From Heteronotia binoei (lineage: Eukaryota): 64,000 nt of DNA. The translations under genes and the position numbers were made by a program. The notes below the pieces were generated by a model. That model ran no database searches and had not been told where the DNA came from. It worked only from the letters and a program-made list of their open reading frames with translations. The stretch covers positions 31,682,001-31,746,000 of the forward strand of contig NC_083233.1 in the NCBI RefSeq assembly GCF_032191835.1, in the 5' to 3' direction. Shown in pieces: positions 12,401 to 61,970 of the stretch. The number at the start of each line of letters is the position of its first letter. Within the stretch, counting starts at the first letter, position 1.

Positions 12401-13285
12401 TTGTAAATATGAATGATCCTCCTGTTTAAGATAATGAAATTTCTTGAAGCAGGCAGTGGTGTATCTACTCCTAAAATATCCTACTGTGGACCGAGGAGTT
12501 AATAAGTACCATCCAGTCCATGCTTAAAAAACAAATCTTCAGATTAGAACTGTACACTTCTAAAATTTCATGAGTACATCATCAGTATATTTAAAATCGT
12601 AATAACTATGCTGAACTATAGAGCTCAATGTGGTGCATTACTAGGAGACGCCTTGAATCTAACCTTTCTAGCTGCAAGTGTAAAAAAGCGCTACTTTGCA
12701 TGAGACCAAGGAGTTCATATCCGACAGTAAAAATATATATATATCAACTTTTCATTGTCAGTTAAGTTGTGTACTTGGCTTAAAATTCCAGGTGGGAAAT
12801 TCCCAAAATGACCAGTTAGTAGCAACACACTGAAAGACAAACACAAGATAAATCCCTCCAAGAGTCAGGTAGGCTTGTGAGACACATGTGTTGCCAGGCA
12901 GAGATTTGGGACAACTGCTGAGTGCTTGGAAGCCTTGAAGGGCCAAAACAGAATGGGTCTCAGGGGTCATATTCTTGTCCAGTGAGGCTCCACAAAAATA
13001 TGCCACTTATTTGTCTTTTCTAGGGTGGCCAGACCGTCCTGGGTGCCTGGGAATGTCCCGGTTCTGGCCCCCTATTCCCGCCTCCCGGGCTGGCTATACC
13101 GGGACCATTTAGAGGTCCCGGTTTAGCCAGCCCTGGAGGCGGTGGGCCGCGGGAGCCGGCGGGGAAGGCGGCGAGTGAGGGAGCATCCCTGCGCGTGCGC
13201 AGGGCCCCTGCACACGCGCAGGAACGCTCCCTCCCTCCCTCGCCGCCTTCCCCGCCCGCACGCGGGGCCCGGCGGCGGTGGCAGA

Positions 13286-13975
13286 GGCCTCTCCGCGGCC
13301 TCAGCTGGTCGCTGGAAGCCCTCCAGAGACTCTGGAGGGCCTCCAGCGACCAGCGGAGGCCGCGGAGCAGCCGGCGCTGGTCCCGGAAGGCCTTCCAGAG
13401 ACTCTGGAGGGCCTTCCGGGACCAGCGCCGACCAGCGAAGGCCTCTCCGCGGCCTCCGCTGGTCGCTGGAGGCCCTCCAGAGACTCTGGAGGGTCTCCAG
13501 CAACCAGCGGAGGCCGCGGAGCAGCCGGCGCTGGTCCCGGAAGGCCTTCCAGAGACTCTGGAGGGCCTTCCGGGACCAGTGCCGACCAGCGAAGGCCTCT
13601 CCGCGGCCTCCGCTGGTCGCTGGAGGCCCTCCACTCTGGAGGGTCTCCAGCGACCAGCGGAGGCCGCGGAGAGGCCGCGGAGCAGCCAGCGCTGGTCCCG
13701 GAAGGCCTTCCAGAGACTCTGGAGGGCCTTCCGGGACCAGCGCCGACCAGCGAAGGCCTCTCCGCGGCCTCCGCTGGTCGCTGGAGGCCCTCCAGAGACT
13801 CTGGAGGGTCTCCAGCGACCAGCGGAGGCCGCGGAGAGGCCGCGGAGCAGCCGGCGCTGGTCCCGGAAGGCCTTCCAGAGACTCTGGAGGGCCTCCAGCG
13901 ACCAGCGCCGACCCGCGGAGGCCGCGGAGAGGCCGGCGCTGGTCGCTGGAGGTCCTCCAGAGACCAGCGGAGGCC
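13286..13975. repeat. GC-rich ~154-bp minisatellite made of two alternating palindromes
   Basis: Unit starts at 13286, 13440, 13594 and 13755. Each unit has two inverted repeats centred on CCAGAG-A-CTCTGG. Confidence 0.92.
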
Positions 13976-14100: not shown

Positions 14101-14531
14101 NNNNNNNNNNNNNNNNNNNNNNNNNNNNNNNNNNNNNNNNNNNNNNNNNNNNNNNNNNNNNNNNNNNNNNNNNNNNNNNNNNNNNNNNNNNNNNNNNNNN
14201 NNNNNNNNNNNNNNNNNNNNNNNNNNNNNNNNNNNNNNNNNNNNNNNNNNNNNNNNNNNNNNNNNNNNNNNNNNNNNNNNNNNNNNNNNNNNNNNNNNNN
14301 NNNNNNNNNNNNNNNNNNNNNNNNNNNNNNNNNNNNNNNNNNNNNNNNNNNNNNNNNNNNNNNNNNNNNNNNNNNNNNNNNNNNNNNNNNNNNNNNNNNN
14401 NNNNNNNNNNNNNNNNNNNNNNNNNNNNNNNNNNNNNNNNNNNNNNNNNNNNNNNNNNNNNNNNNNNNNNNNNNNNNNNNNNNNNNNNNNNNNNNNNNNN
14501 NNNNNNNNNNNNNNNNNNNNNNNNNNNNNNN
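14101..14531. other. Assembly gap (431 N)
   Basis: Run of N, flanked by two different tandem arrays. Confidence 1.
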
Positions 14532-14997
14532 ACACAGAGTGTTGGACTGAATGGGCCACTGGCCTGATCCAACAGGGCTTCTCTTATGTTCTTATGTGAC
14601 ACAGAGTGTTGGACTGGATGGGCCACTGGCCTGATCCAACAGGGCTTCTCTTATGTTCTTATGTGATGCAGAGTGTTGGACTTGATGGGCCACTGGCCTG
14701 ATCCAACAGGGCTTCTCTTATGTTCTTATGTGACGCAGAGTGTTGGACTGGATGGGCCATTGGCCTGATCCAACAGGGCTTCTCTTATGTTCTTATGTGA
14801 CGCAGAGTGTTGGACTGGATGGGCCACTGGCCTGATCCAACAGGGCTTCTCTTATGTTCTTATGTGACTCAGAGTGTTGGACTGGATGGGCCACTGGCCT
14901 GATCCAACAGGGCTTCTCTTATGTTCTTATGTGATGCAGAGTGTTGGACTGGATGGGCCATTGGCCTGATCCAACATGGCTTCTCTTATGTTCTTAT
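14532..14997 (+). repeat. Tandem array of the 67-bp CR1 3' terminus (at least 7 copies)
   Basis: Unit GTGACACAGAGTGTTGGACTGGATGGGCCACTGGCCTGATCCAACAGGGCTTCTCTTATGTTCTTAT starts at 14596, 14663, 14730, 14797, 14864 and 14931, with a first copy cut by the gap. It matches the CR1 ends at ~3407-3476 and ~46122-46185. Confidence 0.95.
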
Positions 14998-15000
14998 GTG

Positions 15001-15060
15001 ACAATAATGACTTTGGTGGACCCAAGCACTGATTCAGTGTAAGGGAGCTTTGTGTTTGTG
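15001..15060 (+). mobile_element. 3' fragment of Squam2-like SINE abutting the CR1 array
   Basis: ACAATAATGACTTTGGTGGACC...CTGATTCAGTGTAAGGGAGCTT resembles the 3' part of the SINE at 4967-5010. Confidence 0.5.
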
Positions 15061-15669: not shown

Positions 15670-15930
15670 GGACGTCACAGGAAGTGCTGTGAAGTCACTT
15701 CCTGTTTCCGGCAGTGGCATTTGGGGGAAATGATGTCATTTGGGGGAAGTGATGTCAGAGGAAGTGATGTCACTTCCCGTTTCCGGCAGGTGACGCGGGG
15801 AAATGATGTCACAGGAAGTGGTGTCACTTCCTGTTTCCGGCGGTGGCATGACGTCACCGGAAGTGACGTCACTTCCTGTATCCGGCGGTGGCATGACGTC
15901 ACCGGAAGTGACGTCACTTCCTGTTTCCGG
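15670..15930. repeat. Degenerate ~45-bp repeat built on the palindrome GGAAGTGACGTCACTTCC (ETS/CRE motif cluster)
   Basis: Perfect TGACGTCA at 15849, 15864, 15894 and 15909. CCGGAAGTGACGTCAC at 15857 and 15902. Decayed TGATGTCA versions lie upstream. Confidence 0.85.
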
Positions 15931-17033
15931 CGCCACACGCGCTTTGCGCGCGCACCCCTGCCTCCCCCCTTCCCCCCAAGGTGTCCCTGGCTGGCCTTCA
16001 GACATTATGGTCACCCTATTTGAAACCCTACTCTTGTGTTCTCTATGACTGATAGCAGATGGCCAGTTGGGGTCGGCCTCAAGCCGTCCCAAAGACAGCC
16101 CCCTGGAAATGGAGTGCCCTGGAGCTTCTGGATAGTGCTCAGAAAAGGGGCAGGCTGTGGGTGCCCAGGGAGCATCTGGAATGCTCTTGTGTCCTGTCCA
16201 TGGCTCTCTATGTGCCTCCCGGCTTTCCAGACGGTCCAGGAGGTGCCTCAGAAGCAAAGAGGTACCACTTTGTAAGCGGTGCCTTTTTGAGCCAGCTCCC
16301 GGCAAGCCTGGGACAGGACAGGGGTGGGAGGGGGATGGCAGGCAGATGTGAATGCTTGGACATGCTTTTTTCCATCTGCCTGCCTCCTGTCCCCCAAGCG
16401 GCTTTAAATGCCCATCTGGTATCACCCTATATGCCCTTTTATAGTGCCCCATTCACTACAGTAGGCCTCCTGATCTCATGTATATCTATCAATCAGAAAA
16501 TGTTCTTGTCTCTTTAAACATGAATGTACACCTTAGTGCAATAAACTAAGCAGGGAAGATTCAGTGTTCAAAAATCAAATTTACCTTCTTCGCAATGCTT
16601 GTTTTCTGTTGAATTGAACATCTCATATGGTTACATTGATGACTTGCTTGCAATTCAAAATTGACAGCAGTTCAATAACTTTTCCCGTTGCTTAATGGTT
16701 GCAATCAGCATGGAACCATGCACAAGTTATTGGTGAAGCCATACACAATGTATTAGTTTGTTTGGACTGTATATTATGGATGCTGTGAATTCATCAGAAA
16801 TCTGTTCAACAGTTGAATATACCATGTTCTAAGGAGTCTATCAGATGTGATTCAATCACCCAGCCCATTTGGTTCTTGCCAAAGCAAATGTGAATGCCTG
16901 TTGAACACGTCACTATTGGTTTCTCACAGAAATGTGCATGTGTGGAGAGGCTGCTCACTCAAACCAATCAGTATCCATTAACATGGCTAGGCTACTTAAA
17001 CAAGCCCCAAAAGAGTAGGATTTAGTAAAATAC

Positions 17034-18176: not shown

Positions 18177-19138
18177 TAGGGATGGGAACTAGGAAAATGC
18201 AGTTCAGTTCATGGCATACTCATGAACTGTCACATACACAAGCTGTCACAAACTAAAAAGGTTTCATACAAACTGAATGGGTTCACGAAGTCCATGATGT
18301 GGTGTATCTGGCATGCAAGATACACCAAAATCACAGGGGATCTCTGGCTGACTTTCCTCTACCTACCTTTTGAGTTTGGTGACTATTGGATTAACAGGGT
18401 CTGAGTTACAGCCCCCCAAAGAAGGTGCAGGTTCAGGTGTGTACAGAATAGAACTTGTGCAAGCCTTTGACACCAAACTTTCCAGGAACCTCAGGCTGGT
18501 AACAAAACTCTATCCAGCAAAGATTGGTTTATCTCTTGTCTCTAGTTGATTGCTAACAGAAGTCTTTTATGTTCTGAATTCACATCACAAAGCTATTATT
18601 ACTGCAGAGGTTCTCAGGGGCCTTGATTCTGTTCTGCTGGGTTTCCATTGCTCTTGCTTTTTTGATGCCCCCCCTCCATTAGAAACAATGGAGGATGGGG
18701 CACCTTCTTTGGGGGACTATAACTCAGGCCTTGCAAAACCATTCTGCATGTAACTTGGAGGTCATGTAGAGGAATAACCAATAGTCACCGAACTCAGAAG
18801 GCAGGTAGAGGAAAGTCAGCCAAGAAAATGGGAAGAGAACTCAAGTTACAGTCAGGAAACCAACAGAAACCCAAAACACAGAGGGGAAAAAAATAACCCC
18901 ACCCACATTGTTGCTTTTAAGTTCCTCCCTTTTGTTGCCTTGAATTTTTGTTAACAGTTTAATTGATCAGCGACAGTTTGTTGGGAAATGAATCCATCCA
19001 CAAACCACCATGAACCACTGTGAACAGCACCAAAGTTCATGGATTGTTTGTACTGGGCACTTCTGAGAACATTTCTTCACAAACGGCCCAAATTTTGTGG
19101 CAAAGTTTACTATGTGAATCAGTTTGTGTTCATCCCGA
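18177..19138. mobile_element. Old palindromic hAT-like element (TAGGGATG-type TIR)
   Basis: Ends TAGGGATGGGAAC / GTGTTCATCCCGA. Internal inverted arms 18346-18429 and 18700-18821. Related to 37010-38007. Confidence 0.55.
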
Positions 19139-19546
19139 TTTAGGAGACATAGGCCAATTCTGCACTAGACTTTTACAAGTTTATGATCCTATATGAGGGG
19201 AACATGCAGGGCTTTCATTAATCTTAATGTTTTAATGTGGGGTACAGGGGGTGAACAGATGGTCTAGGAGGACAGCTATGGCAAAATCATGTGTGAAACA
19301 GTGCAGAAAGCATTTGCAATCCAGACCCAAACAAGGGGTCAAACAAACTAATTAGGCAAAGCCGTGCAGCTCTGCATGGAGAGAAAAAATAACGAAAATG
19401 CTTCTTGTTTTGTTTTTACGCAAAAATGAAGAATAAGGAATGGGGAAAGCAGAATGAGACTGCACATTTATTTATTTTGAATATGCTTATCCTACTTTTC
19501 TGCTGTAAATTAAAGCCCACAGTGGCTTACAAAAAATAACCCCTTC

Positions 19547-19894
19547 GAAATACTTCAACATAAGTCCCTATGGTGCCAATGCTCGACAGGGGAGACTGTT
19601 CCACCAAGGGCTGAGTTCTTCCAGCTGCTCAGCCCCACCCCTTGCCAACCCAGGTCCCAAAAAGAGCTGGGACCTGAGGTTGCCTGTGCTGCTGCTGCCG
19701 GGGGGGAACTATTTCATTAGGGGCTGAGTACTTCCTGCTGTTCAGCCCCACCTCCTTGCTGCTCTTTCTGTATTATGATTTTGGGACCTGTGTTGGCAAG
19801 GGGTGGGGCTGAGCAGCTGGAAGAACTCAGCCCTTGGTGGAACAGTCTCCCCTGTCAAGCATTGGCACCATAGGGACTTATGTTGAAGTATTTC
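19547..19894. repeat. Near-perfect long inverted repeat (116-bp arms, 116-bp spacer)
   Basis: 19547-19662 is the reverse complement of 19779-19894 with 2 mismatches. Confidence 0.95.
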
Positions 19895-20360
19895 AAACAC
19901 ACAACTGAATATGGTTTCATTGTTCGAGAGCGTTGCTCACTTTTTGCAATGACATTTGAATAGCCAGAGGAGTGCCGGGGCAGTCTTAGCCAATGGGCAA
20001 CCAGGGCAGCAGTCCAGGGTCCTGAATTGTGGAGGGTCACTCCTTCTCATGGCCCCACCACTTTGGATAGAGGAAGGAGAAGAAGTAGAGCAGGCTCCTG
20101 ATGCTGCTCATGCCATCCTGTTGGCAGCACATATACTAAAACCAGAATGATACTGAGAAGATTAGCAAGACCCTGTGCATGCCATCCTATCCTGGATGTG
20201 GGCAGCCAGCTCAACATGGCCTGCGCCAGTCAGGGCTTGGTTGCCCAGCTCACTACAGTTGCCACTCATGATCTGCAGTTCCAACAGCTGGTTCATTATG
20301 GCAGCCACTGGCACCCACTCCATCTGTGGCTCAGGCAGTTAGCTCAGCCTGGTGGGCACT

Positions 20361-20630: not shown

Positions 20631-22269
20631 ATGCCACATGCAGCAACAGCTGCTCTTTGCATGGCCCTAGAGGAGAGGAGAACAGCAGTAATTCTGGGGC
20701 TCCATCCTGGACCATGGGGGTGACTGAGCACCCTGGTCTTAATAATAGAAAAGAGGCTTGCTAAAACGGCCTTCATTGGAAGGGCGACTCTGTCCAGCCA
20801 CCTTAAATGTAGCACTCTGTGAAATAAGCACTCCTTTTTGACATCTCTTTGAATATTGGCGGGTCAGAGTGCCCCCCCCCCTTGCCCAATTGTGTCATCA
20901 TCACCTGGAGGCTGCAGATCAATCAAGTCAGTACATTTCTGAACTGTGAATCCCACTAAGATGAAAATCACAAAAAGAGATCCTTTTGAATACATTCCTA
21001 GTGACAGATGTAAATTTTATGTAAATTTTATGGATTTGGAACAATCTTAGGGAGTAAAACAAATAGGCCTGATAACAAAACTCTATCCAGCAAAGATTGG
21101 TTTATCTCTTGTCTAAAGTTGATTGCTAATAGAAGTCTTTTATGTTCTGAATTCACATCACAAAGCTATTATTTCGACAGGTCCTGCATGAAATACATTC
21201 CAAATATTTTTGTTCCTTAAAGAAAGTAACTTACAAGGTAAGAGGTATGTGTGAGTGTGTTGGGTGTGTGGGGGGAGAGATTTATCCTTTGACATGCTTA
21301 TAAGTTTCAGACCTATCAAAAGGGGGAGAAACAACAACTTTTATCTGATTTCAAATTGTGTTGGCTGTCAGTCTCTTTTACAATTTTTTTTTCCCTAGTA
21401 TATTTCCCTGTCAGCACACATATTTGAGAGCTGGGAAGAACATAAAAGAATTTCAGACATTTTAGGGTTTACACAACAGTGCAGTGCAAAGAAGGAAAAA
21501 ACCAAGCCTTCCCCCCCCCACCACCTCTCTTGTTTATTATGTGTTTGGAAAGAGCAACTTGCTCTAGCTTTTATCTCTCTGAAATAATGTGGTTGTCAAA
21601 TAAAAATAAATAAATCAGTAGAATCCTGGCAGATCTGCCTGTGGGTCCAATTAGTCCAGCATCCTGTTTCCAACACTGGACAGCCAGATCCTTCCAGGAA
21701 GTCCGCATGCGGGTACAAATGCAGTCGCCCTCTGCTACTGTTTCTTCTTCTGGTTGGGAAGGCTCTATTTAGCTATCACTGCTAATCAGTGTTACTGCAG
21801 TAATCACTTAATGTGATGACTACTGCAGTGTCAACTAAAGAATCATCCTCATGCAGACCTAGTAGGTGGGATAGTCATGCTGAGCAAGGCCATTTGGGGC
21901 AAGCGGTTAATCTTAACAAATGCATCCGCTACTCTTCAATCAGCAATGCCGCTTTGATATTTTTTTTCTCCTTAGGACTGAAGAAGCGTTTGGCCAGTCA
22001 AATAAAGGATCATTTCATGATCAAATGCAGCCCATAGGAATTCAGTTGCTGCTCATGCCCAGTTTGGTTTGACTTGAAAAGCTCAAGGGTGGGATGGAAC
22101 ACAAAGGAACAGTGGTATGTTTCAAATGCTGATGCAACGCTGATGCAGGTATAGAGAGATGGTTTCTGCATGATCAGAAGGAGGAACATGACAGCTGAGG
22201 ACTGATCAACACATAGAATGAGCTTCAAACTGGTGAGATGGCACAGTGGACTTTCAGCTGGTAGGCCAC

Positions 22270-38007: not shown

Positions 38008-38611
38008 AAAGTAAATTTTGACTCATACAGTGTTGTTACAGAGGATAATTTCTTTTTTTCCAAAAATTGCTTCTTAAGATGTAACTATTTTTCTCTTTTA
38101 TTTCTTTTTCATTTCTCTTTGAAGAGAAATCAGTTCACCCTTTTGTAACTTTAGCCCTTGCAGCTGTTTTATGTTACGTACCACAGGGTAATGCTGTCCC
38201 AGGAGGGCGAGATACTTTGAGAATACATTGCCTGCCTCTGAGCAGCTACCAAATGAGATTTAGCAGAACATTGCTTCTGCCCCTCTTCTCTTTGAATTTC
38301 TTGTAACTGATTAGAAACTGACTCCAAATTCGCCCTTTTTAAAAAATAAATAAAATGCCAGCTTTTATAGATGTCTGGGAATGGACTCACCACTGACCCA
38401 CCCTCAGCCTTTGAGGCCACGATCAAGAGAAAAGTAACTGACATGGTCTGTGAGAGCAGCTATCTCATACTCATCATACCTGGTGGTGGGGGGGCAGCAG
38501 GGATCCCAGAGGACTGGCCCGACAACAAAGGAGCAACACTGCCTCTCCCGGAGAATCAGGCAGCCAGTGATGGAGAGGCAAAACCAGCAGCATGGACAGG
38601 TTCTGAGACTG

Positions 38612-39289
38612 GGTGGACTCACAGGAAGCTGGCCCAACCCAGCTGTTGGGGATTTCAACTCAGGCAGGCCTCCTGGATTAGCCAATCAGGGGCTGGCAGA
38701 CATCTCCAGGGGGGCGGGATCCATAACTTGGGAGAGCAGAGAGGAAAGATAGGCTACCATCTAGAGGGTAGGGGATTGGGGAATGCTGTGAAAGAGGGAG
38801 GACCAAACTCAGCTAGGGATGCCAGCCTCCAAGTGGGACTTGGGGATCCCCCAAAATTACAGCTCATCTTCAGACTACAGAGATCTGTTCCCCTGCAGAA
38901 AATGGATGCTTTGGAGGGTATAATCTATGGCATTGTATCTCCTGAGGTCCCTTTTTTCTGCAGGCTCCATCCCCAAATCTCCAGGAGTTTCCCAACCTGG
39001 ATCTGCCAACCCTATACCCCATCCCCCACTGGTGGTCATTGGGGGGGGGTGACCCTAAATCAAACCTATATAAAACTGATCCCATGACAAGGCAGGGAGA
39101 AATGAAATAACCTTGCTCTGAGATCTGGGGTAACACAGGCTCAGGATAAAGTGAGGGACAAGGTGGCACAACCCCCTCCTCTTCCCATTCTGAGGCCTGG
39201 GGAGGCTTACTTTGTCATACGGCAAAACAGCTGAAGAGGGAGGACCCACAGAATGGAAAAACTGAGTAAAGAGGAATTAAGCAAATTTC
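38612..39289 (+). repeat. ~677-bp direct duplication, copy 1 (left flank of Gypsy)
   Basis: Matches 43921-44597 with 14 substitutions and 1 indel by manual alignment. Contains a MITE at 38814-39014. Confidence 0.95.
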
Positions 39290-39532
39290 GGAGACGTAAG
39301 TCGGGCAACATTCTTTATTAGGAGCACGTTGCAAGAGAGCGAACACGCAGGCCGGGCCCCGCTTATGTACAGTTCCCAGAACAGCCTACTGGACAGGTCA
39401 AGCCAATCCTGACCTGTCAAACTTCCCGCCCCAGCTGGTGATTGGAGGGGAACTCCGCGCCCAGCGTAGGAGGCGCCTGGGACCGCCCAGTCGCCTCTAC
39501 GCGTGGACGCATATGGCTGCTGATACACTACA
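39289..39532 (-). repeat. 3' LTR, lacking its terminal 16 bp
   Basis: Aligns with 43678-43920 (about 7 substitutions and 1 indel). Begins TGTAGTGTA on the minus strand. TGTAACGTACTCAGTC, seen at 43662-43677, is absent here. Confidence 0.93.
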
Positions 39533-39543
39533 CCCCTCCCCCC
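39533..39543 (-). promoter_or_regulatory. Polypurine tract
   Basis: GGGGGGAGGGG on the minus strand immediately before the 3' LTR. Confidence 0.9.
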
Positions 39544-39545
39544 GG

Positions 39546-40824
39546 TTAATGCACATAGTCCTTTAGGTACGCGGGAGGCCGGCGCTCCCTGGTGGACTGT
39601 CTGGGGAGGTCCTGTGGAGGCGGCACAGCTTCCGCTGCAGTTGGTGCATCGGTGGACCGAGGCGCGGCCGGTAGCTGCGGGTCTGGGTCCGCGGGTCTTT
39701 CAGACTCTGTTGGCCCCGGCGCTTCGTGTGTCGGGGTTGCTGGTGTTGGGGCCGCTTCCTCGGGTCGGTCCCTGGTTGGCTCCCCCCCGGAACCAGCCTC
39801 TTCTATGTCCGCCGGTTCCTCCGGCAGAGTGCGGCGGCGCAACTGGTCTATGTGCCGCCTTAATACCTGGCTCCCCTCGGTTGATATATCGTAGTGGCGG
39901 GACCCCGTTACTCGTAGCACACGGCCCGCCACCCAGTCTGGCCCCCTGGCATAGTTCCGGGCATATACCGGGTCGCCCGCGAAGAAACCCCTGGCTGCGT
40001 CCCGGACCTCGGGGCTGCTGCGGGGGTCTGGCGCCCGGTCGGGGTGTAGCTGGTCCAGTCGGGTTATGAGCTTGCGCCCCATGAGGAGCTCTGCCGGACT
40101 GACCCCCGTGACCGGGTTGGGTGTGATCCTATTGTCGAAAAGTAACGTGTCCAACCTGTGGTCCCAGTCGCCCTGCACGATCCGGCTCAGGGCCTCTTTG
40201 GTTGTGCGGACCATCCACTCGGCCTGGCCGTTGGTGGCCGGATGGAAGGGGGCAGACCTTATGTGCCTAATCAGATATCTCTGGAGGAACGCCTGGAAGT
40301 CCGCCGATGTGAATGCGGTCCCGTTATCCGAGACTATGGTGTCCGGGATCCCGTGTGTGCATAAGACCCGGTGCAGTGCTCGGATTGCAGCGGCGGACGA
40401 GGTGGACCCCACAGGAATGACCTCCAGCCATTTGGTGTAGGCGTCCACGATTATCATGAAGATCTGCCCCTGAAATGGCCCCGTGAAGTCGAGGTGGAGC
40501 CTCGACCATGGCTTCCTGGGGGATTCCCATCGTGTGGCGGGGGCGCTAGGCAGCTCGGGGCATGTTGCTTGGCATGTCTGGCACCTACGGACCCAGCTCT
40601 CAATCTCCCCGTCCATCCCCGGCCACCAGACGTAGCTCCTGGCTAACGCCTTCATTCGGACTATGCCGGGATGGGTCTCATGTAGGGACTCGAGCACCCG
40701 CTTTTGCAACTGGGGCGGAACCACCACCCTACTCCCCCATAGTAGGCACCCTTTGTGGGCTGCTAGTTCCTCCCTCCTAGACTTATATGGCTTGAATTCC
40801 TCTCCCATGTTCCCTTCTGGCCAC
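39546..40824 (-). CDS. pol: Gypsy integrase portion of pol (after frameshift)
   Basis: HHCC zinc finger (LHETHPG...CQTC), core LHLDF...IVSDNG...NGQAE (DDE). Real frame starts at about GWPEG in ORF 39546-41063. Confidence 0.9.
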
Positions 40825-43576
40825 CCCTCACCACCCAGTCGAGTACCCGTGCCAGCGTCTTGTGTTTCTGGGTGGCCTTGGCAACCTCCGCTGCGTGGAG
40901 GGGCTGCTCCGGGAGGCTCTCCACTAGCATGACCTGGTGTACGGGGGCAGGGTCGGGGCCTGTTTCCGGTAGCGGCAAGCGGCTGAGCGCGTCCGCGTGG
41001 CCCATGGCCTTGCCTGCCCGGTGGACCAGTGTGTACGTGTAGGAGTTGAGGAATTGGTTCCACCTCAACACGCGCTGTGAAAGAATTTGGGGGGTTTGAC
41101 GGTCTGGGGCCAGCAGACCTAAGAGGGGCTTGTGGTCCGTGGCAATAGTGAACCTCCGCCCGTACAGGTATTCATGAAACTTGCAGACCCCCGCCACGAT
41201 TGCCAGAGCCTCCTTGTCTATCTGCGCATAGTTTCGCTCGGCTGGTGTAAGTGTGCGGGAGTAGTACGCTACCGGTACCTCCCTCCCGTCCGGGAGCTGG
41301 TGCCCCAGGACTGCTCCCACCCCATACGGCGACGCATCGCAAGCCAAGATGACGGGGAGGCCCTCGTCAAAATGGTGGAGCACCGCATTAGACACCAGGA
41401 CGTCCTTGACCGCCTGAAACGTGGCGGCTTGTCGTTTTCCCCAAACCCACGTGGCTTTTTTGTCCAGCAGCCAGTGAAGGGGCTCTGCTAGGGCTGCTTT
41501 GTGGGGGAGGAACGAATGGTAAAAGTTCAGCACCCCCAAGAAGCTTTGTAGCTCCACCCTGCAGGTGGGGGTCGGGGCTTGCACGATGGCCCGTGTCTTT
41601 TCGTCCATAGGGTGAATTCCCGCTGCATCTACGGCAAACCCCAGGAACTCCACCCGTGGAACCCCCAGCACGCATTTCTCCCTCTTGACCTTGAGCCCCA
41701 CTGCCTGGAATCGGCGGAGCACCTCTCGAAGGCGGTTGCCGAATTCTTCGGGGTCCGGGGCGGTGATTAAAATGTCATCGAAGAACGGCTGGACTCCGGG
41801 GATCCCTTTAAGGAGAGCGTCCATTATACTCTGGAAGATCCCCGGAGCGACGCTTACCCCGAACTGTAGCCTCCTCACCCGGAAGGCCCCCCTGTGTGTC
41901 ACAATCGTTTGTGCCTCGGCCGTCTTGCTGTCTACTGGGAGCTGTTGGTAGGCCTGTGCCAGATCCAGCTTCCCAAAGATTTTAGACCCCGCGAGGGCAG
42001 CCAAGACGTGGCTCACCACCGGCACTGGGTAGGGGTTATCCTGCAGTGACTTGTTTATCGTGCATTTATAGTCTGCACAGATCTGCACCTCCCCGTTTGG
42101 CTTGATAGGGGTTACGATGGGGGTCTCCCAGGCAGCGTAGTCCACTGGCTCCAGGACTCCCTGGGCCGCGAGGCGGTCTAGTTCGGCCTCTATTTTTGGC
42201 TTCAAGGCGAACAGGACCCTCCTCGCCTTGAGCCGAATCGGCCGGACCGTGGGGTCTAGTGGTAGGGAGATGGCCGGCCCCTTGTAGCTCCCTAGGGAAC
42301 CATCGAATACGTCAGGGAACTCCTGGCATATCTCCCTGAACCCTCTGAGCGTTAGGGTCTGCCCCACCCCCTCCACGCGGATCCCCAAGGGTTTGAACCA
42401 CGCCAGTCCTAGCAGGGTGTGGAGCTGGCACTTTACCACCAGGATGTCCAGCGGGCCGTAGAAGGACCCCCGCTCGACTTGCACCCGCGCCCACCCCGCG
42501 ATTTGCACCGGATTTTTCTGGAAGTCCCTGAGTATGAAGTCCGCCGGCCTTAGTTGAAGCCGCTGGCAGGGGCAGAGTTTCCTCAGAGTTTCCTCCGCTA
42601 TGATTGAAAGGGAGGAACCCGAGTCCACCTCCATCAGGCAGGGGTTCCCTTCGATGAGGACCGCCATTTTGATTTTGTTGGGGGTGGCGAGGGGCAAGTT
42701 CAGTACCTGTAGGGATGTAGAGTCTGCGGAGGGGAACTCTGCCGACTCGTGGTGCGTGGTCGGCCTCCGGCGGTTGGGCTTAGCGCGGCAAGCCCTTGCG
42801 ATGTGGCCGGTCTTTCCACAGCTCCAGCAGTCCCAGGTCCGGTACTGGCAGTCTCTCCGGTCGTGGGGGTCGCCGCAACTGGCGCACTTGGTGGCCGGAG
42901 CCCTCTCCACTGCTGGGGGTCGATCGACCGCTCGGGGGCGTTGGGCCGTTCTGTTGGGTGGTCCGGTGGGACGCCGCAGCTGGTGGGCTTCCCTCTCCTC
43001 CGGGCGGTCATGGTCCAGCTCCTCGTGGTGGACGGCGTCTGTCCAGGCCTTGGGAAAGGTCTTTGAGGTCCTCTCGAATGCCACGGCTTCGTTGAAAGCA
43101 CTCTGGAGGGTGAGCTCTTCTTTGGCAAAGAGCTTCTGCTGGAGCCTCTCGTCGCGGAGGTCCCACGTGAAGCGATCGGCCAGGGTGTCTTCCAGCTGGG
43201 GGAAGTTGCAGTTCCCGGCGATCCTGCGGAGGGCCGCCAAGTAGTCAGCGGCCGATTCGCCTACTGCCTGGTCCCTTTTGTGGAACAGGAACCGATGGGC
43301 CACCCGCGACGGCTGCAGCAAGAAGTGGCCGGTGAGGAGTCGGCTGACCTCCGTGAAGGACTTCTCCATGAGGCGGGCGGGGTTCGAGAGACCCTTAGCG
43401 ATCTCGAATGTGGCCGCCCCGCAAACGCTCAGGAGAACGTCCCTCTTCATGCTGTCCTCCATTACTTTGTTGGCCCTCAGGTAGCATTCGACCCATTCCA
43501 GGTAGGACTCCCAGGCCTCTGGATTCGCGGGGTCGAACGGCTCGACGTGACCGGTGGTTCCGCCCTGGTTAGCCAT
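40825..43576 (-). CDS. gag-pol: Gypsy gag-protease-RT-RNase H polyprotein
   Basis: Likely ATG at 43576 (MANQGG...). Protease VDSGS, RT LDLAQAY/RLQFG/FFDD, RNase H CDAS/DKEAL. Frame is lost at the C run 40824-40827. Confidence 0.92.
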
Positions 43577-43642
43577 GGGGGCTGCGGCGGCGGTCGTGGC
43601 CAGGTTGTGCCCTTGGTCTCCTCCGTAGCCGATAAGGCTAGG

Positions 43643-43660
43643 ATCCCATCCTCGTCGCCA
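43643..43660 (-). promoter_or_regulatory. Primer-binding site complementary to tRNA-Ser(GCT)
   Basis: TGGCGACGAGGATGGGAT, 1 nt from the 5' LTR. The plus strand ATCCCATCCTCGTCGCCA equals the vertebrate tRNA-Ser(GCT) 3' end including CCA (recalled sequence). Confidence 0.88.
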
Positions 43661-43661
43661 G

Positions 43662-43920
43662 TGTAACGTACTCAGTCCGGAGACGTAAGTCGGGCAACAT
43701 TCTTTATTAGGAGCACGTTGCAAGAGAGCGAACACGCGGGCCGGGCCCCGCTTATGTACAGTTCCCGGAACAGCCTACTGGACAGGTCAAGCCAGTTTGA
43801 CCTGTCAAACTTCCCACCCCAGCTGGTGATTGGCGGGGAACTCCGCGCCCAGCGTAGGAGGCGCCTGGGACCGCCCAGTCGCCTCTATGCGTGGACGCAT
43901 ATGGCTGCTGATACACTACA
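43662..43920 (-). repeat. 5' LTR (259 bp, intact TG...CA)
   Basis: Minus strand TGTAGTGTA...TACGTTACA with imperfect terminal inverted repeats. AATAAA present (plus-strand TTTATT at ~43703). Confidence 0.95.
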
Positions 43921-44597
43921 GGTGGACTCACAGGAAGCTGGCCCAACCCAGCTGTTGGGGATTTCAACTCAGGCAGGCCTCCTGCATTAGCCAATCAGGG
44001 GCTGGCAGACATCTCCAGGGCGGCAGGATCCATAACTTGGGAGAGCAGAGAGGAAAGATAGGCTACCATCTAGATGGCAGGGGATTGGGGAATGCTGTGA
44101 AAGAGGGAGGACCAAACTCAGCTAGGGATGCCAGCCTCCAAGTGGGACCTGGGGATCCCCCAAAATTACAGCTCATCTTCAGACTACAGAGATCTGTTCC
44201 CCTGCAGAAAATGGATGCTTTGGAAGGTATAATCTACGGCATTGTATCTCCTGAGGTTCCTTTTTTCTGCAGGCTCCATCCCCAAATCTCCAGGAGTTTC
44301 CCAACCTGGATCTGCCAACCCTACACCCCATCCCCCACTGGTGGTCATTGGGGGGGGTGACCCTAAATCAAACCTATATAAAACTGATCCCATGACAAGG
44401 CAGGGAGAAATGAAACAACCTTGCTCTGAGATCTGGGGTAACAGAGGCTCAGGATAAAGTGAGGGACAAGGTGGCACAACCCCCTCCTCTTCCCATTCTG
44501 AGGCCTGGGGAGGCTTACTTTGTCATATGGCAAAACAGCTGAAGAGGGAGGACCCACAGAATGAAAAAACTGAGTAAAGAGGAATTAAGCAAATTTC
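43921..44597 (+). repeat. ~677-bp direct duplication, copy 2 (right flank of Gypsy)
   Basis: Starts exactly at the LTR edge. Matches 38612-39289. Confidence 0.95.
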
Positions 44598-45307: not shown

Positions 45308-45440
45308 TTGGACTGGATGGGCCATTTAGACTGGATGGGCCATTTAGACTGGATGGGCCATTTGGACTGGATGGGCCATTTGGACTGGATGGGCCATTGG
45401 CCTGATCTAACATGGCTTCTCTTATGTTCTTATGTTCTTA
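45308..45440 (+). mobile_element. CR1 3' terminus with five tandem 18-bp units
   Basis: GACTGGATGGGCCATT core at 45311, 45329, 45347, 45365 and 45383 (first four followed by TA or TG), then GGCCTGATCTAACATGG and (TTCTTATG)n. Confidence 0.9.
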
Positions 45441-45626
45441 ACTTCTCTCCCCATAATAGACACCCTGTGAGGCGAGTGGGACTGAGAGGGCTCTCACAGC
45501 AGCTGCCCTTTCAGGCAACTCCTGCAATAGCTATGGCTAACCCAAGGCCATTCCAGCAGCTGCAAGTGGAGGAGTGAGGAATCAAACCCCTTTCTCCCAG
45601 ATAAGAGTCCGCACACTTAACCACTA
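45441..45626 (-). mobile_element. Squam3-like SINE truncated at both ends
   Basis: Reverse complement of the 48775 copy, lacking the first ~16 nt and the tail. Confidence 0.85.
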
Positions 45627-46185
45627 AAAGGTTAAAGGGTTGGAACACTTTCTCTATGAAGAAAGGCTAAAACGCTTGAGGCTCTTTAGCTTGGGTCAAC
45701 TGTGGGGTGACATGACAGAAGTTTACAAGATTATGCATGGGATAGAGAAGGTGGAGAAAGAAGTACTTTTCTCCCTTTCTCACAAGACAAGAACTCGTGG
45801 GCCTGCAATGAAAGGATAAAGGGAAGTACTTCTTCACCAAAGGGTGATTAATACATGGAATTTACTGCCACAGGAGGTGGTGGCGGCTACAAGCACAGCC
45901 AGCTTCAAGGGGAGGGGGGAGCGGTCGGATAAACATATGGAGCAGAGGTCCATCAGTGGCTGTTAGCCACAGCATATTGTTGGAACTCTGTCTGGGGCAG
46001 TGATACTCTGTATTCTTGGTGCTTGGTGGGGGGGGGGGGCACAGTGGAAGAACTTCTAGCCCCACTTGTGGACCTCCTGGTGGCACTTGGGTTTTTTGTT
46101 TTTGTTTTTTTTGTGGCCACTGTGTGACACAGAGTACTGGATGGGCCATTGGCCTGATCCAACATGGCTTCTCTTATGTTCTTAT
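45627..46185 (+). mobile_element. CR1 3' fragment with long 3' UTR
   Basis: Similar to 3013-3357 (GAACACTT..CTATGAAGAAAGG..AAAACGCTTG), then a ~170-bp UTR and the terminal stem-loop/TTCTTAT tail. Confidence 0.88.
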
Positions 46186-48774
46186 ATGCATTTTAAATGC
46201 TATTTTAATGTTTTAAATATTTTAATGCCTTGATGTTCACCACTTTAGGGACTATACTTTGGAGGAAAAGAGACGTACGAATGCTTCAAATAAATAAATT
46301 TAAGATAGTTATAATCCATTTTTTCCCATGTCAGAACAACTTCTGGCAAAGCCTGTTGAAGCTACAATACTGCTAGTTCAGACACTCATACCATAGCCTC
46401 TGCCTCACACACCCCTGGCTCCAACATGGTAGCCACAGCAGCTTTTTCCTCTTTTCTGCAGCCCTCTCTTAAAACAGTGTGGCAGGTCATACAGCCCTAT
46501 CAGGCTTCCCAAATTTTCACACAGAATTCATTCCTCTCAAAAGAGTTTGACCACTTTCAGATGGTCCTTGCCCCCTTGCCAGTTGCTATGGTTGCTTATT
46601 CTATATGCTGCAAATATTTGCCTGAACAGGCCCATATTTTATCTGGAAATGCCACCTGAATCAAAATTTGGTAGCTCAGAAATTTGCCATCCCACCATCC
46701 CCAGAGACATTTGCTGATTATATCAAAGGATTTTAGTTCTCTTCAAAAATGCCTGCAAATATTCTCTCTCTTTCTCTCTAAGTGGGGGCCTGAAACTTTG
46801 TTGAAATTCAACTGCATCTGAAAAGATTATGATACCCCCTGAGAAATGTGGTTAATCTCACTGAAATGTTTTCTGCTTGCCTCAAAATTCCACAGAGCAG
46901 GAAGGAAGATCCCTCCAAATTCACCTCACATTTCACTGCAGGTGAAATTCAGTGGTAAACTCCAGTCATGTTTTGAATCAAGTTAGGGTAGATGGAGCCA
47001 GCGAGCGGAGGTTGTAATTTTTGTCAGTTTGTTTTCATCTGCCTATAATGTTGGCATAATATATGAGCCTATAGATGTAGTAACCATATGATAGTTTCTC
47101 AATCTCCTGGGAGAAAAGGCAACACAATTTTCTCCTATTCAGAGAAGGACAGAGACACAGCTGATTGCATTATGCTGGTATTGCAGTTACAATATTAATG
47201 AGTGTGTTTTTCTCCCCTTAGAGACATCGGTCTAGATTTGAAGAAAAGGGAGAAGAATAAGGTAAAAATTGTCAGAAATTGTTCTGTAGTTTTAGAAATA
47301 ACACCATTATACAAATCAGTTTCAGAACCTTGCAGTCTTAGGCATTCTTTGCAGTGCCATTATAAACAGAGTTACACCCTTCAACGTTCACTGAAATCAG
47401 TTAGCGTAGAAAGGTATCAGTCTGCTTAGGTTGGCACACTGTTGGTCACTCTGGAAGACTGGTTATCTGGATATTGAACTATACAGCATATTCTTTAGTA
47501 TACTGAAATTCCAGTATTCAGTTGTGCAAATGGTGTGGGAGAAGAATGGGGAAAGTAAAACACTCATTTCTCTAGCGCCACAGCTTCAATTCATGCTGCT
47601 CAACCTTATATCTAACTTTTTCAGATTAACTATATGTTGGGTGTGATATGATTATGAACCACGATGTCAAGTATATTTTGGCACTGAGAGTCATTTCATA
47701 TATTGCATAGTTGTGGACACATGTTACTGTTGCACATAATGAGATGGAGGCAATTCCAGTTTCATGTTACTAGGAGATTACTGCATGCTTGTTGCATTCA
47801 TAAACTATGTCCTTTTCAGATGTTACAGCCATAGCTATGCCAGGACTACCTGCAATGCTCCTAATGCATGTGGTTGTCACTCTATGTAAAACAGGACAAT
47901 GTGCAGATTCTCCATGTGAAAAGAGATTCAATACATATGCACATTCATGGAAAAATCATTCATTCCTCAGTTCACATGAAATGTTAACTGTGCATCATGG
48001 GTAGCATTTATTATTTATTTATATATATTTATTAAAACATGTATATCCTGCTTTACAGTAATGCATTTGCTTCTACTGGTAGTAGGTTCTCAGTATGCAT
48101 GATTTTAACATCTGAAAAGGGCTTTATGTAGGCATAAATCTGTTGTTTTTTACATATGCAAGTAATATATAAAGTGATCAGTGGCCCTTGAGCCTGTGCC
48201 CCAGTATCTGCAAAGTCACATGATCTTTTAAATTTAAAAAAAAAAAAGCAACCTTCCCTCTGTCATTTTGCAGGATCAGGTCCGAATTCTGCCTCTCACC
48301 ACCTGTCTCACTCGATAAAGGTTCAAGATGGCATCTCCTTGCCTCATCAACTCTCCATCTGTTTCGTACTCTCATATGAAAACAGCTCTTTTCATTTATC
48401 TTTTCTTCAAAATATTAATTATGTCTTCTGCTCTCTTTTCTCCAAGTAGTGAGAGGTTCAAAGGAGCTCTTATAGGGTCATTTACATTTGGGGCAAAAGG
48501 TGTGAGAGAATTATGATGTCTTCAACAGAAGCCAATTACTAATAAAGATACAAATTGAGCAGTGATTATGCTATGCAGAAGAAACACCAGGCTTAGGCTG
48601 CCTGCATGAACAAAGGCAAACCACAGCAGATACAGTAGTAACATTTATTCAGAAAGGCACTCTACTGGACTTTACTACACTTTTTATGAAGAGAATCTAT
48701 GTGGGTTGTGACCAATTGTTTCTCCAAACTTTCAATGCTGATGCAGATATCCCCATTTTGATTATTCCTTCTCC

Positions 48775-57201: not shown

Positions 57202-60200
57202 AGTGCTTTCCCAGAGACTGTAAAGGGGTGCTGTCTCTAACAGTGTTTAGGGGGTAATGCAAGGCTATTTTATTTACCAGGGCTTTTAATTGATAGAAAT
57301 TGTAGACCAGTTGGGGATGGGGATCTCTCAGTTTGGACTCCCTCCCTCTGCTTCAATGCTATCACAAAGTGGGGTGAAATGGCCACAGAATAGCTCCCCC
57401 CCCACACACAACAAAGAAGAAGCAGGAAATAACTGCAATGTCTACCTAACCAGGAAGTGATTACCAGGAAGCTGTGTTGGTGATTTCAGGGGCAATGCTC
57501 TGGTTTTTGGGCAAAACTCTATGGTAGAATTAGCTTCAAACCATAGAGTTTAGCCCAAAAACCAGTGTCTCCCCCCTACATCACTGACATGCCTATGTCA
57601 CTTCCTGGTGATGTAAGCATGCCATGTTTATTTCCTGCTTCTCCCTCCTTGCTCCCAGAAAGTAAAACTGCCCCCTACCCACTGATCAAACCAAACTGGC
57701 AACCATACACTTTTTGGGGAGGGGCGTTAGTTGAGGGGTTATTGTATTTTTGTTGTGTGTGTGTGTGTAGAGAGAGAGAGATGATAGATAAAATCTAACA
57801 TTATCAAACAACCATTTCATCCCATTAATCCACCCTTTCCTCTAGCTCTACCAGAGTGGAGAAAATGAATATTTTTTTAAAAAAAAATCAAACATAAAAA
57901 GGAGAGAAAAGAACACCCTGGTGAGAATTCAACTTGTTTCCTACTTCATAATTGCTCTTATCTTGGATGCCTGTGCACCTGATTGGTTGCGATTTTTTTA
58001 GTGGTTTCTCCAAGGGACAAACATTCGGTGGGAACTGGCAAGGAACCACTGCATCACACTAAAAATAAAATATTTGAAAGAAGTTAAATTAGCAGCTCAG
58101 CTCTGTAAATCTGATCCGTGTCCTTCATTGAGACACGAAGTATTTTCCCCCTACCCATTTGGAATTGAGTGTAGGGCTTTAAGGGGTGGGAGTGGGTGGA
58201 CTCAGTGTCTTGTGAGTCCCAGCCACCTGAAGGATTGATCAACTGTATTCAAAGTGGCCCTGCCTCCCCAGGCTGCTATTTAAGGCTGTTCTGCCACCCC
58301 AGTAATTTCCATTGTTACTGCCCATCCTTTTATAATGGCAATGAGGAATTAACTGGCCACTTTGGAGCCAAAGGAATTTGGGGAGCTTCTTCTTGGATTG
58401 GCCTGGAGAAGAGGGCTTTCTTCATCTACTTCATGTTGCTAGAATGGATGAGTTTACAAACTGAAGTTGGATTAAGTGGGGTTTTGTTAGGCTCTTACTA
58501 AAGAGGGCAGGGATTGTGTGGGTCTACTGCTTTATGTGAACTAAGGATCAATCAGCAGACATCCCAAGGATTCAAAAAGGAAGCTGGTTATTCCAGCATA
58601 ACTGCTCTGGCCAACTGGCATAGGAGAATAGTAATGATGCTCAAAACCACTTAGAGAAGCATGATGTTGGTATGGTGCTGGAGAAAGGTTTGTCCATATT
58701 CTTGTAGCCTGTCAGGCTGCTCTCACAATTAAGGTAACCTTCCCTGAAAATAAGTCTTTGCTTTATGATTGAACAGATCACATGATAAACAAAACCTTAG
58801 CTGTACCAATATTTTGAGTCTTGTGCCTTCATTTCTGAGTCCTTATTTCAAGGCTATTTTTTTTAAAAATGCAACTTTTTGGCTCAGCTAGAAAAGCATG
58901 TTTTCTGATTTCTATGTGATTGTTTTCTTCCTCTTTGCTTTAGAAAAAAGGGGGGGGGGATCCACAAACCACTGTTCAAATTAAACAAGGATCATTTGAC
59001 ACATATGTTTTGTATTCCCTCTGAAGATTACAACAGCTTTTCCGAAGAGAATTTTTATACATCTGTTTAAATTAAAAGAGTTTGTCCAGAATAGAGGCTT
59101 TGACAATAGAAATGATGTTTTTGGTGTAGCCTCAGAAGTTGTGTTTAAAAAACCAAAAAATCCTCTACATTGTTCTTGAGCCAAAAGGAGGTCTTTAAAT
59201 GTGGAGTACACACAACAGCTTGATGTCCTACATTTCTGACAACTTTGTTACATCCCATAAACGTCTAGACAAATCTAATTAAAGGCAATGAAATACTTTT
59301 ACACCAACTAAACTGCATTAATCTTCTCTTTAAAAAAATTGGACTTGGATCAAGTTCTCTACAGGGCTCAAATGCATTGGCTTTAAATAAACACTGTATA
59401 TATGTTGTTAACAGCAAGACACTGCATTGTGAATGTATGTTTGGAATGATAAATGTCTCTTTTAAAAACTTTAAAAGTTATTCAGAAAAGACAGCCACAA
59501 GCAACTTCTCAATGAAAATGGCATTAAATTTAAACAACAACAACAAAATTGAAAGAAGTTCTTCATTCAACTATGGGCACCTTCCAGCCAAAATTATATA
59601 CTTCTGATTCTTGGTCTATTAGCTCACTGTCTTGAAGACCCAAGAAAAATGTCACAAACAGGTCTGCTCTAGGACTTTTTAAAAAATCCCAGCGTTTTAT
59701 TTCCTAGGATATTACTCTGTAGTGGTTAGCTGTTTGTACCAAATTTTGTTCTGTCCTAGAAGCAGAACATGGACCAGGAAGAACACCAGAAATATAGCTA
59801 TAAATTTACTTAGTCCTTCTGTTCACTAACCCTGACACAGTACTGAAAGCATGAGAAAGGGAGAAGCCTTATCAAACATGAGAGGGAAGGGAGATGGAGG
59901 GTGTTTTTACACTGACAGTTTGTGACTCTCTATCACCGCATTGGAAACTCATCTTTTACATTACCTAATGTTCGCACAACTGTTTTGCATCTTTGCTGCC
60001 TGAAGCATCTACATTTGTTTCTGTGAGATGAGTTCTGGAGCTGCTGCTGCAATGTTTTTCTTGACACTAGTTTTGATCCGGTCATTTCTCTACAAATGTT
60101 TCAAACTTGTATTGTAGAAGTTTTCATGCATTTTAAAAGATTCCTCCAAAAGCCACAAGGTGCAGTAATTTGCATGAGAACTGACAGCACTTGAAATTTT

Positions 60201-60384: not shown

Positions 60385-61970
60385 GAGCAGAGTGGTCTGT
60401 CCCCATCTAAAAAAAACATCTTTAGACCCGGCCCAATTGGCACACTATTGGCCGGTTTCAAATTTGCCCTTTTTGGGCAAACTTATTGAGAGGGCAGTGG
60501 CGATGAAGTTACAGACCTTCCTGGAGGACGCTTCCATCCTTGACCCACTTCAGTCCGGCTTTCACCCGGGCCATGGGACGGAGACGGTGTTGGTTGCCCT
60601 GGTAGATGACCTTCAACGGCATCTGGATCGGGGTGGCTCGGCAGTGCTGATGTTGTTGGACCTATCGGCTGCGTTCGATGCGGTCGACCATCGGTTACTG
60701 ACTTGCCGCCTTGCCGACGCGGGGATTCAGGGGTTGGCCTTACAGTGGCTTTCCTCTTTCCTTGAAGGTCGGGGACAAAGGGTCGCGATTGGGGGGGAGC
60801 TATCCCAGAGGCGCACACTCGACTGTGGTGTGCCCCAAGGGGCGGTTCTCTCCCCAATGTTATTCAACATCTATATGCAACCCCTTGCCCAGATTGCCTG
60901 AAGGTATGGGCTGTGATGTCACCAGTATGCTGATGACACCCAGCTCTATCTGCTTATGGACGGCCGACCGGTCTGCGCCCCGGAAAATCTGGATTGGGCA
61001 TTACAGGCCGTGGCTGAGTGGCTCAGACTGAGTGGACTAAGGCTAAATCCTGCAAAGACAGAGGTCCTTTGCTTGGGTCGTCGGGGACCGGGGGGAAATC
61101 CCCCTGCCAGTTTTTGACGGTGCGCCGCTGATGGCGGCGGACAGGGTCAAGAGCCTGGGGGTACTATTGGAGAAAGATGGAGGCTCAGATAGCAGCCACT
61201 GCCAAGTCCGCGTTTTTTCATCTTAGGCGGGCAAGGCAGTTGGCTCCCTTCCTGGATCGCGACGACCTAGCAACAGTGATCCATGCTACGGTCACCTTGA
61301 GGTTGGACTACTGCAATGCCCTCTACATGGGGCTGCCCCTGTGCCGAACTTGGAAATTGCAGCTGGTGCAGAATGCCGCGGCCCGGCTGTTATTGGGCCT
61401 CCCAAGATGGGGGCACATTCGGCCGGGTCTTCGGGCTCTGCACTGGCTCCCAATAATATACCGAGTTTGGTACAAGGTGCTGGTCATCACCTTTAAAGCC
61501 CTATACGGCCTGGGACCTGCCTACCTGAAGGACCATCTCTCCCCACATGTTCCCCAGAGAGTACTGAGATCGGGAACCCAAAATCTTCTTGCTATCCCTG
61601 GGCCAAAAGAAGCCAGCCTAAAATCTACTAGGGACAGGGCCTTCTCTGTTATGGCCCCTACATGGTGGAACCAGCTGCCGGAGGAGGTGAGGGCCCTGCG
61701 GGACCTTATTCAGTTCCGCAGGGCCTGTAAGACAACCCTCTTCCGGCTAGCTTACACCTAACTGATATGGGAAATTAAATATAGCTTTACCAGATTCTTG
61801 CTATACATACTGTTGTAATGTTTAATGTGTTTAAGGTTTTAAATGTTTTGAATGTTTTAAATGCTTATATATTTAAATGCTAATTTAATTTTATGTTTGA
61901 CTATCTGTGGTGAGCCGCCCTGAGCCACCTTTGTGGGAAGGGCGGGATATAAATCATAAATAAATAAATA
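60385..61970 (+). mobile_element. L2-clade LINE, 5'-truncated, degenerate
   Basis: ORFs 60383-60901 and 61177-61761 are closely similar to the 512-1768 protein. Premature TGA at 60899-60901 and a small deletion near 61170. Terminal GTGAGCCGCCCTGAGCC...GGGAAGGGCGGGATATAAAT and (TAAA)n. Confidence 0.93.

Follow-up and report, generated by a model that had tools for sequence, protein, structure and literature searches.

The analysed stretch (hereafter the window) comprises 64,000 nucleotides of contig NC_083233.1 of the gecko Heteronotia binoei and contains, within 38612-44597, a Ty3/Gypsy retrotransposon of 4.6 kb (about 4650 bp) that lies on the minus strand between two direct copies of host DNA. 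Read on that strand, the element shows a 5' long terminal repeat (LTR), a primer-binding site, a gag-protease-reverse transcriptase-RNase H frame, an integrase frame, a polypurine tract and a 3' LTR (Table 1). The order of protease, reverse transcriptase, RNase H and integrase, as derived from Pfam positions and motifs, is that of the Ty3/Gypsy group. The gag-pol frame matches the Pfam domains RVT_1 and RT_RNaseH and carries a CCHC knuckle together with protease, reverse transcriptase and RNase H motifs, while the integrase frame matches Integrase_H2C2 (1e-17) and rve (6e-14). One frame break near 40808-40832 separates the two pol frames, neither of which contains an internal stop. In a tblastn search with related proteins against the element, the matches change frame at this same place; intact relatives possess a single gag-pol frame of 1355-1356 amino acids. 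Of 8000 scored candidate proteins 103 matched the element, the best being K02A2.6-like proteins of Heteronotia binoei itself (up to 93% identity), followed by those of other squamates. As the K02A2.6-like matches come from several contigs, the family would seem to be multi-copy in geckos, and no further copies or solo LTRs of it, from which the usual length of its duplication could have been read, were found within the window.

The complete LTR (43662-43920) measures 259 bp and runs from TGT to ACA on the minus strand. LTRs with TG...CA ends, the primer-binding site (presumably of the tRNA-Ser type) and the polypurine tract are all present, with the exception of the U5 end of the 3' LTR, which is clipped. 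Given that the element is read on the minus strand, it is intact at U3 and clipped at U5. The size of about 4.6 kb, the short LTRs, the position of the integrase after the RNase H and the single gag-pol frame of the intact relatives resemble the Mag lineage of Ty3/Gypsy elements (K02A2.6-like), near which the element may be placed on sequence features. The present copy departs from that lineage in its clipped end and in a duplication of 677 bp in place of about 5 bp; for the mosquito Mag elements, the table in question lists 5-bp duplications in 20 of 21 copies (PMC3286476). The absence of a 4-6 bp target-site duplication at this copy, where the 677-bp duplication is found instead, bears on the insertion event and not on the identity of the element.

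The host copies at 38612-39289 and 43921-44597 constitute the strongest repeat within the window, with 97.8% identity over 678 columns in a self-BLAST. A global alignment gave 677 aligned columns with 14 substitutions (10 transitions and 4 transversions) and a sole indel of one base, located in a G run, which bears out the differences that a first-pass annotation of this DNA had counted. The first copy is 678 bp long, including the base that it shares with the LTR, and the second 677 bp, and the similarity ends abruptly at either edge of the unit. As the same annotation had stated, the second copy begins exactly at the intact LTR edge: the terminal CA end is joined directly to the first base of the duplicated target (43920|43921). 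Because 10 of the 14 substitutions are transitions and the differences are evenly spread, sequencing error is an unlikely cause of them. The unit itself is ordinary host DNA. Part of a common host repeat lies inside it, and this repeat is matched at 7 other places in the window, in both orientations; these matches are only 69-82% identical, which makes them uninformative for polarising the substitutions between the flanks. The possibility that the unit is the LTR of a second element, which the first-pass annotation had named as fatal to its own reading, was rejected, as the unit lacks TG...CA ends in both orientations and an AATAAA or ATTAAA signal, and a search for a short duplication outside the pair of flanks found none.

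At the other junction, the 3' LTR (39289-39532) lacks its terminal 16 bp and meets the end of the first host copy through a single shared C. The first-pass annotation had described the junction in the same way, except that it counted the C twice: the loss amounts to 16 bp if this base is assigned to the LTR and to 17 bp if it is assigned to the host. The lost 16-mer occurs once in the window, in the complete LTR, and the next best match covers 11 of 16 positions, so that a transfer of the lost piece to a nearby site was not found in the window. Two further features lie at or near the junction, both of which were noticed post hoc, after several features had been inspected. The first, on which the first-pass annotation is silent, is an inverted match of eight nucleotides between the lost U5 end (43669-43676) and the host sequence 39261-39268. 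It is situated 21 nt away from the join, and the element is clipped 1 nt inside this 8-mer. When all LTR 16-mers (n=244) were compared with the 40 nt on either side of the clipped join, 8 reached an 8-nt match and all 8 contain the terminal 8-mer; among 80-nt segments of host DNA, 12 of 2713 (0.4%) match the lost end equally well. In addition, a 6-bp palindrome (39283-39288) adjoins the shared base, as is the case, with the palindrome ending 0-1 nt before, for 1547 of 54441 host positions (2.8%). The orientation of the inverted match is wrong for direct priming of the observed join, and no stable hairpin spans the clipped junction in its present form (z=0.81). The match and the palindrome may be due to chance, may have acted as a tether or may have been left by a fold-back route.

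To date the duplication relative to the insertion, the divergence of the flanks was compared with that of the LTRs. The LTR pair (39289-39532 and 43678-43920) is 96.7% identical in the self-comparison, and its alignment shows 7 substitutions and 1 indel in 243 columns. This corresponds to a divergence of 2.9% (95% interval 1.2-5.8%) as compared to 2.1% (1.1-3.4%) for the flanks, and the two proportions (7/243 and 14/677) do not differ significantly (Fisher p=0.46). The statement in the first-pass annotation that both divergences are of the same order therefore holds, with the restriction that the flank/LTR ratio of 0.72 has a 95% interval as wide as 0.27-2.1. At non-CpG sites the values are 10/669 (1.5%) for the flanks and 2/201 (1.0%) for the LTRs (p=0.74). 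Four of the five isolated LTR substitutions are CpG transitions. The remaining LTR difference is clustered, with two substitutions and the indel within 4 bp, and lies inside a quasi-palindrome present in each LTR (39392-39418 and 43781-43806), the stem of which is lengthened by the change in the 5' LTR; this suggests a template-switch correction. The flank differences are evenly spread (Kolmogorov-Smirnov p=0.89) and rich in transitions (10/14), as for genomic mutation, and the stop-free pol frames fit a decay of 1.0-1.4% (P=0.19-0.31, with assumed mutation weights). An equal age of duplication and insertion is compatible with these data, which permit it and do not prove it.

Table 1. Features of the retrotransposon, its junctions and the flanking host DNA (positions are those of the window)
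Feature	Position	Strand	Remarks
Host duplication, copy 1	38612..39289	+	678 bp including the base common with the LTR
Interspersed host repeat fragment	38811..39015 (copy 2: about 44120-44324)	.	7 further matches in the window
Host 8-mer, inverted match to 43669-43676 in the lost U5 end	39261..39268	+	21 nt left of the clipped join
Host palindrome of 6 bp	39283..39288	.	Directly before the shared base of the join
3' LTR	39289..39532	-	U5 short of its last 16 bp (17 with the shared base counted as host); aberrant junction at 39289
Polypurine tract	39533..39543	-	Adjoins the 3' LTR, read from sequence
Integrase frame	39546..40832	-	Zinc-binding domain, core with acidic catalytic motifs, no internal stop
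Gag-protease-reverse transcriptase-RNase H frame	40808..43576	-	Pfam and motifs, no internal stop
Primer-binding site	43643..43660	-	1 nt inside the 5' LTR
5' LTR	43662..43920	-	Complete, 259 bp, TG...CA; outer U3 edge is the normal-looking junction
Host duplication, copy 2	43921..44597	+	677 bp, flush with the intact LTR edge

Taken together, we consider it likely that the locus records an aberrant integration in the germline, in which integrase joined one end of the element and host repair closed the other. The coincidence, to the base, of the edge of the duplication with the intact LTR edge supports such an event, and the second breakpoint falls within the last 17 bp of an element that is about 4650 bp long, which corresponds to 0.4% of the length. 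We infer the strand logic from established integrase chemistry. Integrase would have joined the U3 end of the cDNA to the plus strand of the host at what is now 38611|38612, which would have linked the terminal CA of U3 on the plus strand to the first base of the unit and left a free host 3' end at 38611. The U5 end would never have been joined, or would have broken away before gap repair. In the simplest route, the free host 3' end would then have been extended by about 677 nt on the intact strand or the sister chromatid, and subsequently end-joined to the U5 end, trimmed beforehand by 16-17 bp. In the alternative outlined in the mechanistic passages of PMC5041404, it is the trimmed U5 end that would prime on the target and copy back, after which recombination would complete the join. 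As a third route, a normal two-ended intermediate could have broken at the U5 junction before gap repair. The likelihood that we assign covers these three routes jointly, as each leads to an identical product and sequence alone cannot separate them.

The interpretation given in the first-pass annotation, half-site integration, thus stands as far as the class of event is concerned, with one normal end, one host-repaired end and a duplicated target, and in that sense it is well supported. Its specific claims go further than the data allow: the clipped end itself was said to have invaded the target, yet chance alone gives one shared base in 44% of cases (200,000 simulated joins of LTR end and host) and host-end extension with end-joining would be equivalent, and integrase was said never to have joined the U5 end, although a break of a two-ended intermediate at U5 would yield the same product. 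A more elaborate repair course, absent from the papers cited here, is that the junction records a fold-back in two steps, which we regard as doubtful. The free U5 end would have paired with the host 8-mer at 39261-39268 and been extended by about 21 nt in the wrong direction, upon which the strand would have turned at the palindrome and copied back over the 677 bp; loss of one arm of the palindrome so formed would place the clip 1 nt inside the matched 8-mer. If this were true and further copies of the gecko family were to combine, at a measurable rate, clipped U5 ends and long duplications with the signature of inverted homology and palindrome, it would mean that natural Gypsy integration routinely fails at one end and that rescue by template switching is a regular source of sub-kilobase duplications in vertebrate germlines.

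Several points weigh against an origin by aberrant integration. The evidence consists of the assembled sequence of one locus, and the microhomology of 1 nt, being at chance level, does not support the view that the clipped end primed synthesis. The two ages agree loosely, given the ratio interval of 0.27-2.1. Moreover, both non-CpG differences between the LTRs fall in the one clustered hairpin change, so that no isolated substitution at a non-CpG site separates the LTRs, although the rate of the flanks would predict about 3. This leans, not significantly, towards flank copies that were possibly different alleles at birth. Finally, in the control passages of PMC5041404, unperturbed HIV-1 integrations were aberrant in 0 of 99 and 0 of 85 cases, so such events are rare without perturbation.

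The main alternative is a mis-join of haplotypes, in which an empty allele (left flank and unit) was joined by the assembler to a filled allele (element, unit and right flank), so that the 2% difference between the copies would be allelic. The layout is indeed the one that is generally known as typical of a false tandem duplication at a heterozygous insertion, and a gap of 431 N in the window suggests a scaffolded draft. Heteronotia binoei is a species complex that includes hybrid, highly heterozygous parthenogens, and non-CpG sites show a nominally higher divergence in the flanks than in the LTRs. We nevertheless hold an artefact to be unlikely. The join contains no N and offers an overlap of only 1 nt, whereas assemblers need long overlaps or leave a gap, and the only run of N in the window (14101-14531) lies 24 kb from the element. 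Furthermore, an LTR divergence of 2.9% points to an old insertion, which is less likely to be still heterozygous, and at a length of at least 90 bp and an identity of at least 93% the window contains one other non-tandem, non-LTR direct repeat (105 bp) and none that would flank the gap as a false duplicate.

A later origin of the duplication is somewhat less likely still. Here, the element would have inserted normally, with a 4-6 bp duplication. Long afterwards, the U5 junction would have broken and been mended from the empty homologue or the sister, or else a filled and an empty allele would have undergone an illegitimate exchange. The final sequence would be identical, and the lower bound of the ratio interval (0.27) permits a younger duplication; however, the chance that a random break hits the terminal 17 bp of the element is about 0.4%, breaks at the terminus are what integration intermediates produce, and at non-CpG sites the divergence of the flanks is no lower than that of the LTRs. 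It is also conceivable, but in our view improbable, that two members of the family inserted 677 bp apart on the homologues in the same orientation and recombined unequally. The duplicated flanks would then enclose a hybrid of the two elements, and a small deletion would have removed the U5 end in a separate event. Duplications are known to arise from unequal exchange between repeats, and the scheme is akin to the 'pseudo-TSD' idea set out in part of PMC5488345; in addition, the family appears multi-copy in geckos and the single clustered LTR difference could mark two parents. Against this, two close events in the same orientation and an unrelated junction deletion are required, the CpG transitions that make up four of the five isolated LTR substitutions are as expected of sibling LTRs ageing in place, and the clustered difference, being situated in a quasi-palindrome, is explicable by template switching. 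Least credible of all is that the unit is another element's LTR or that the element inserted at the seam of a pre-existing tandem duplication. Direct repeats around an internal region do look like an LTR pair, but the structural hallmarks of an LTR are missing, as described above, part of a common host repeat lies inside the unit and nothing other than the Gypsy element separates the two copies, while an exact insertion at a seam combined with a matching deletion would involve two coincidences.

The closest parallels to the preferred explanation, aberrant integration, are found among the retroviruses. The aberrant integrations of HIV-1 and, as summarised in PMC5041404, of avian sarcoma-leukosis virus likewise combine a normal end with one that has lost between a few and tens of bases, and the host DNA that they duplicate amounts to hundreds of bases. 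The supplement of PMC5041404 lists 67 aberrant HIV-1 proviruses, of which, by our own count, 13 have one normal LTR, another that lacks 2-23 bp and a host duplication, and 6 have inversions. The duplications in these 13 range from 66 bp to 1.6 kb (12 with a stated length and 1 without) and include the loss of 17 bp with about 1.6 kb duplicated and the loss of 10 bp with about 990 bp (PMC5041404). Six of the 13 are clipped at the LTR next to the polypurine tract, as is the gecko element (own count, PMC5041404). According to the passages of that paper on junctions, short homology at the aberrant end is usual and not invariable; the gecko element has 1 nt. Unlike the gecko case, which is a natural, aged and inherited copy of a Ty3/Gypsy element, the viral events described there were provoked in cultured cells through drugs, mutant integrases or mutated ends (PMC5041404).

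Inherited examples are known from HERV-K (HML-2), for which the survey passages of PMC5488345, together with Mamedov et al. as cited in that paper, report LTR elements between direct host repeats of 61-450 bp, so that the rarity implied by the first-pass annotation was overstated. Duplications of more than 10 bp were found there at 8 of 451 sites. For two of them, of 250 bp and 111 bp, the empty site has been sequenced, and the longest, of 450 bp, is located at 21q21.1. The provirus with the 111-bp duplication, at 6p25.2, is also truncated on one side, and for 21q21.1 the listed LTR interval is 257 bp as compared to 968 bp for full LTRs, from which we infer a shortened LTR; the passages on HML-2 contain no statement as to whether it is truncated. 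The gecko duplication is longer than those of HERV-K, but that survey covered only duplications of up to 500 bp. Differences are that HERV-K is betaretrovirus-like and primate, as opposed to a Gypsy element in a gecko, and that the long duplications are not tied to one-ended integration in the parts of PMC5488345 that describe them, which raise pseudo-duplications made by recombination as an alternative.

Among open-licence papers and preprints, to which our search extended, no long duplication with one-ended integration was found for a Ty3/Gypsy element or a reptile, which is a weak indication of its absence, and the open-licence literature on Mag elements in reptiles and on false duplications offered nothing specific to such a case. 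An insertion of the mouse IAP element with an unusually long target duplication was reportedly described by Tanaka and Ishihara in 1995, a work that PMC2425471 cites; judging from the title, it differs in being somatic, from irradiated leukaemia cells. On present evidence the gecko case works like the one-end-defective integrations of retroviruses and represents a new instance in a Gypsy element rather than a new mechanism.

If reads confirm the structure, host-completed integration with one defective end extends from the retroviruses to a reptile Ty3/Gypsy retrotransposon, with a duplication longer than any in the HERV-K table as available in PMC5488345. Annotation that demands a duplication of 4-6 bp would miss such copies or call them recombinants. 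Direct repeats of 677 bp also allow clean excision by recombination, and hence an 'empty' allele at this position need not be ancestral, a point that has been raised for HERV-K in a passage of PMC5488345. A single locus without a host gene found at the target settles no general question by itself; the frequency of such copies across the family would matter.

With respect to the host context, a Pfam scan of 300 of the 304 open frames of at least 55 amino acids (the gag-pol frame and three frames beyond 63000 were left out) revealed no host gene at the target, and gave one reverse transcriptase fragment above the cut-off and four weak matches below it. The window contains neither a tRNA gene nor an Rfam match. 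A plus-strand open frame of 238 codons with an ATG start (38371-39084) crosses the insertion site into the first host copy; it has no Pfam match and no relative among 537 candidates, which included longer proteins only and thus provide weak evidence, and it is probably spurious. Another of the open frames, at 59269-59604 on the plus strand, shows a weak PRELI-like Pfam match of 82 residues, which at E=0.0016 does not reach the curated cut-off and may reflect either chance or the remains of a pseudogene. Degraded reverse transcriptase fragments without LTR partners occur at 534-1759, 1725-2651 and 60527-61742 and are probably long interspersed nuclear elements, with the first and the last being 78% identical in opposite orientation.

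The remaining observations concern repeats elsewhere in the window. A second pair of direct repeats (18496-18600 and 21069-21173; 105 bp, 96%), on which no LTR-like ends were seen, brackets 2468 bp, within which the segment 18345-18389 recurs in the opposite orientation at 18778-18822. The same 2468 bp also include an inverted repeat of 119 bp (19544-19662 and 19779-19897, 97.5%). The gap of 431 N (14101-14531) is flanked by tandem arrays of a very GC-rich 154-bp unit and a 67-bp unit (13285-13964 and 14532-15002), the latter unit being also present singly at 3406-3475, 45380-45448 and 46114-46188. Short tandem arrays with units of 19, 54 and 45 bp and palindromic cores are located at 15718-15932.

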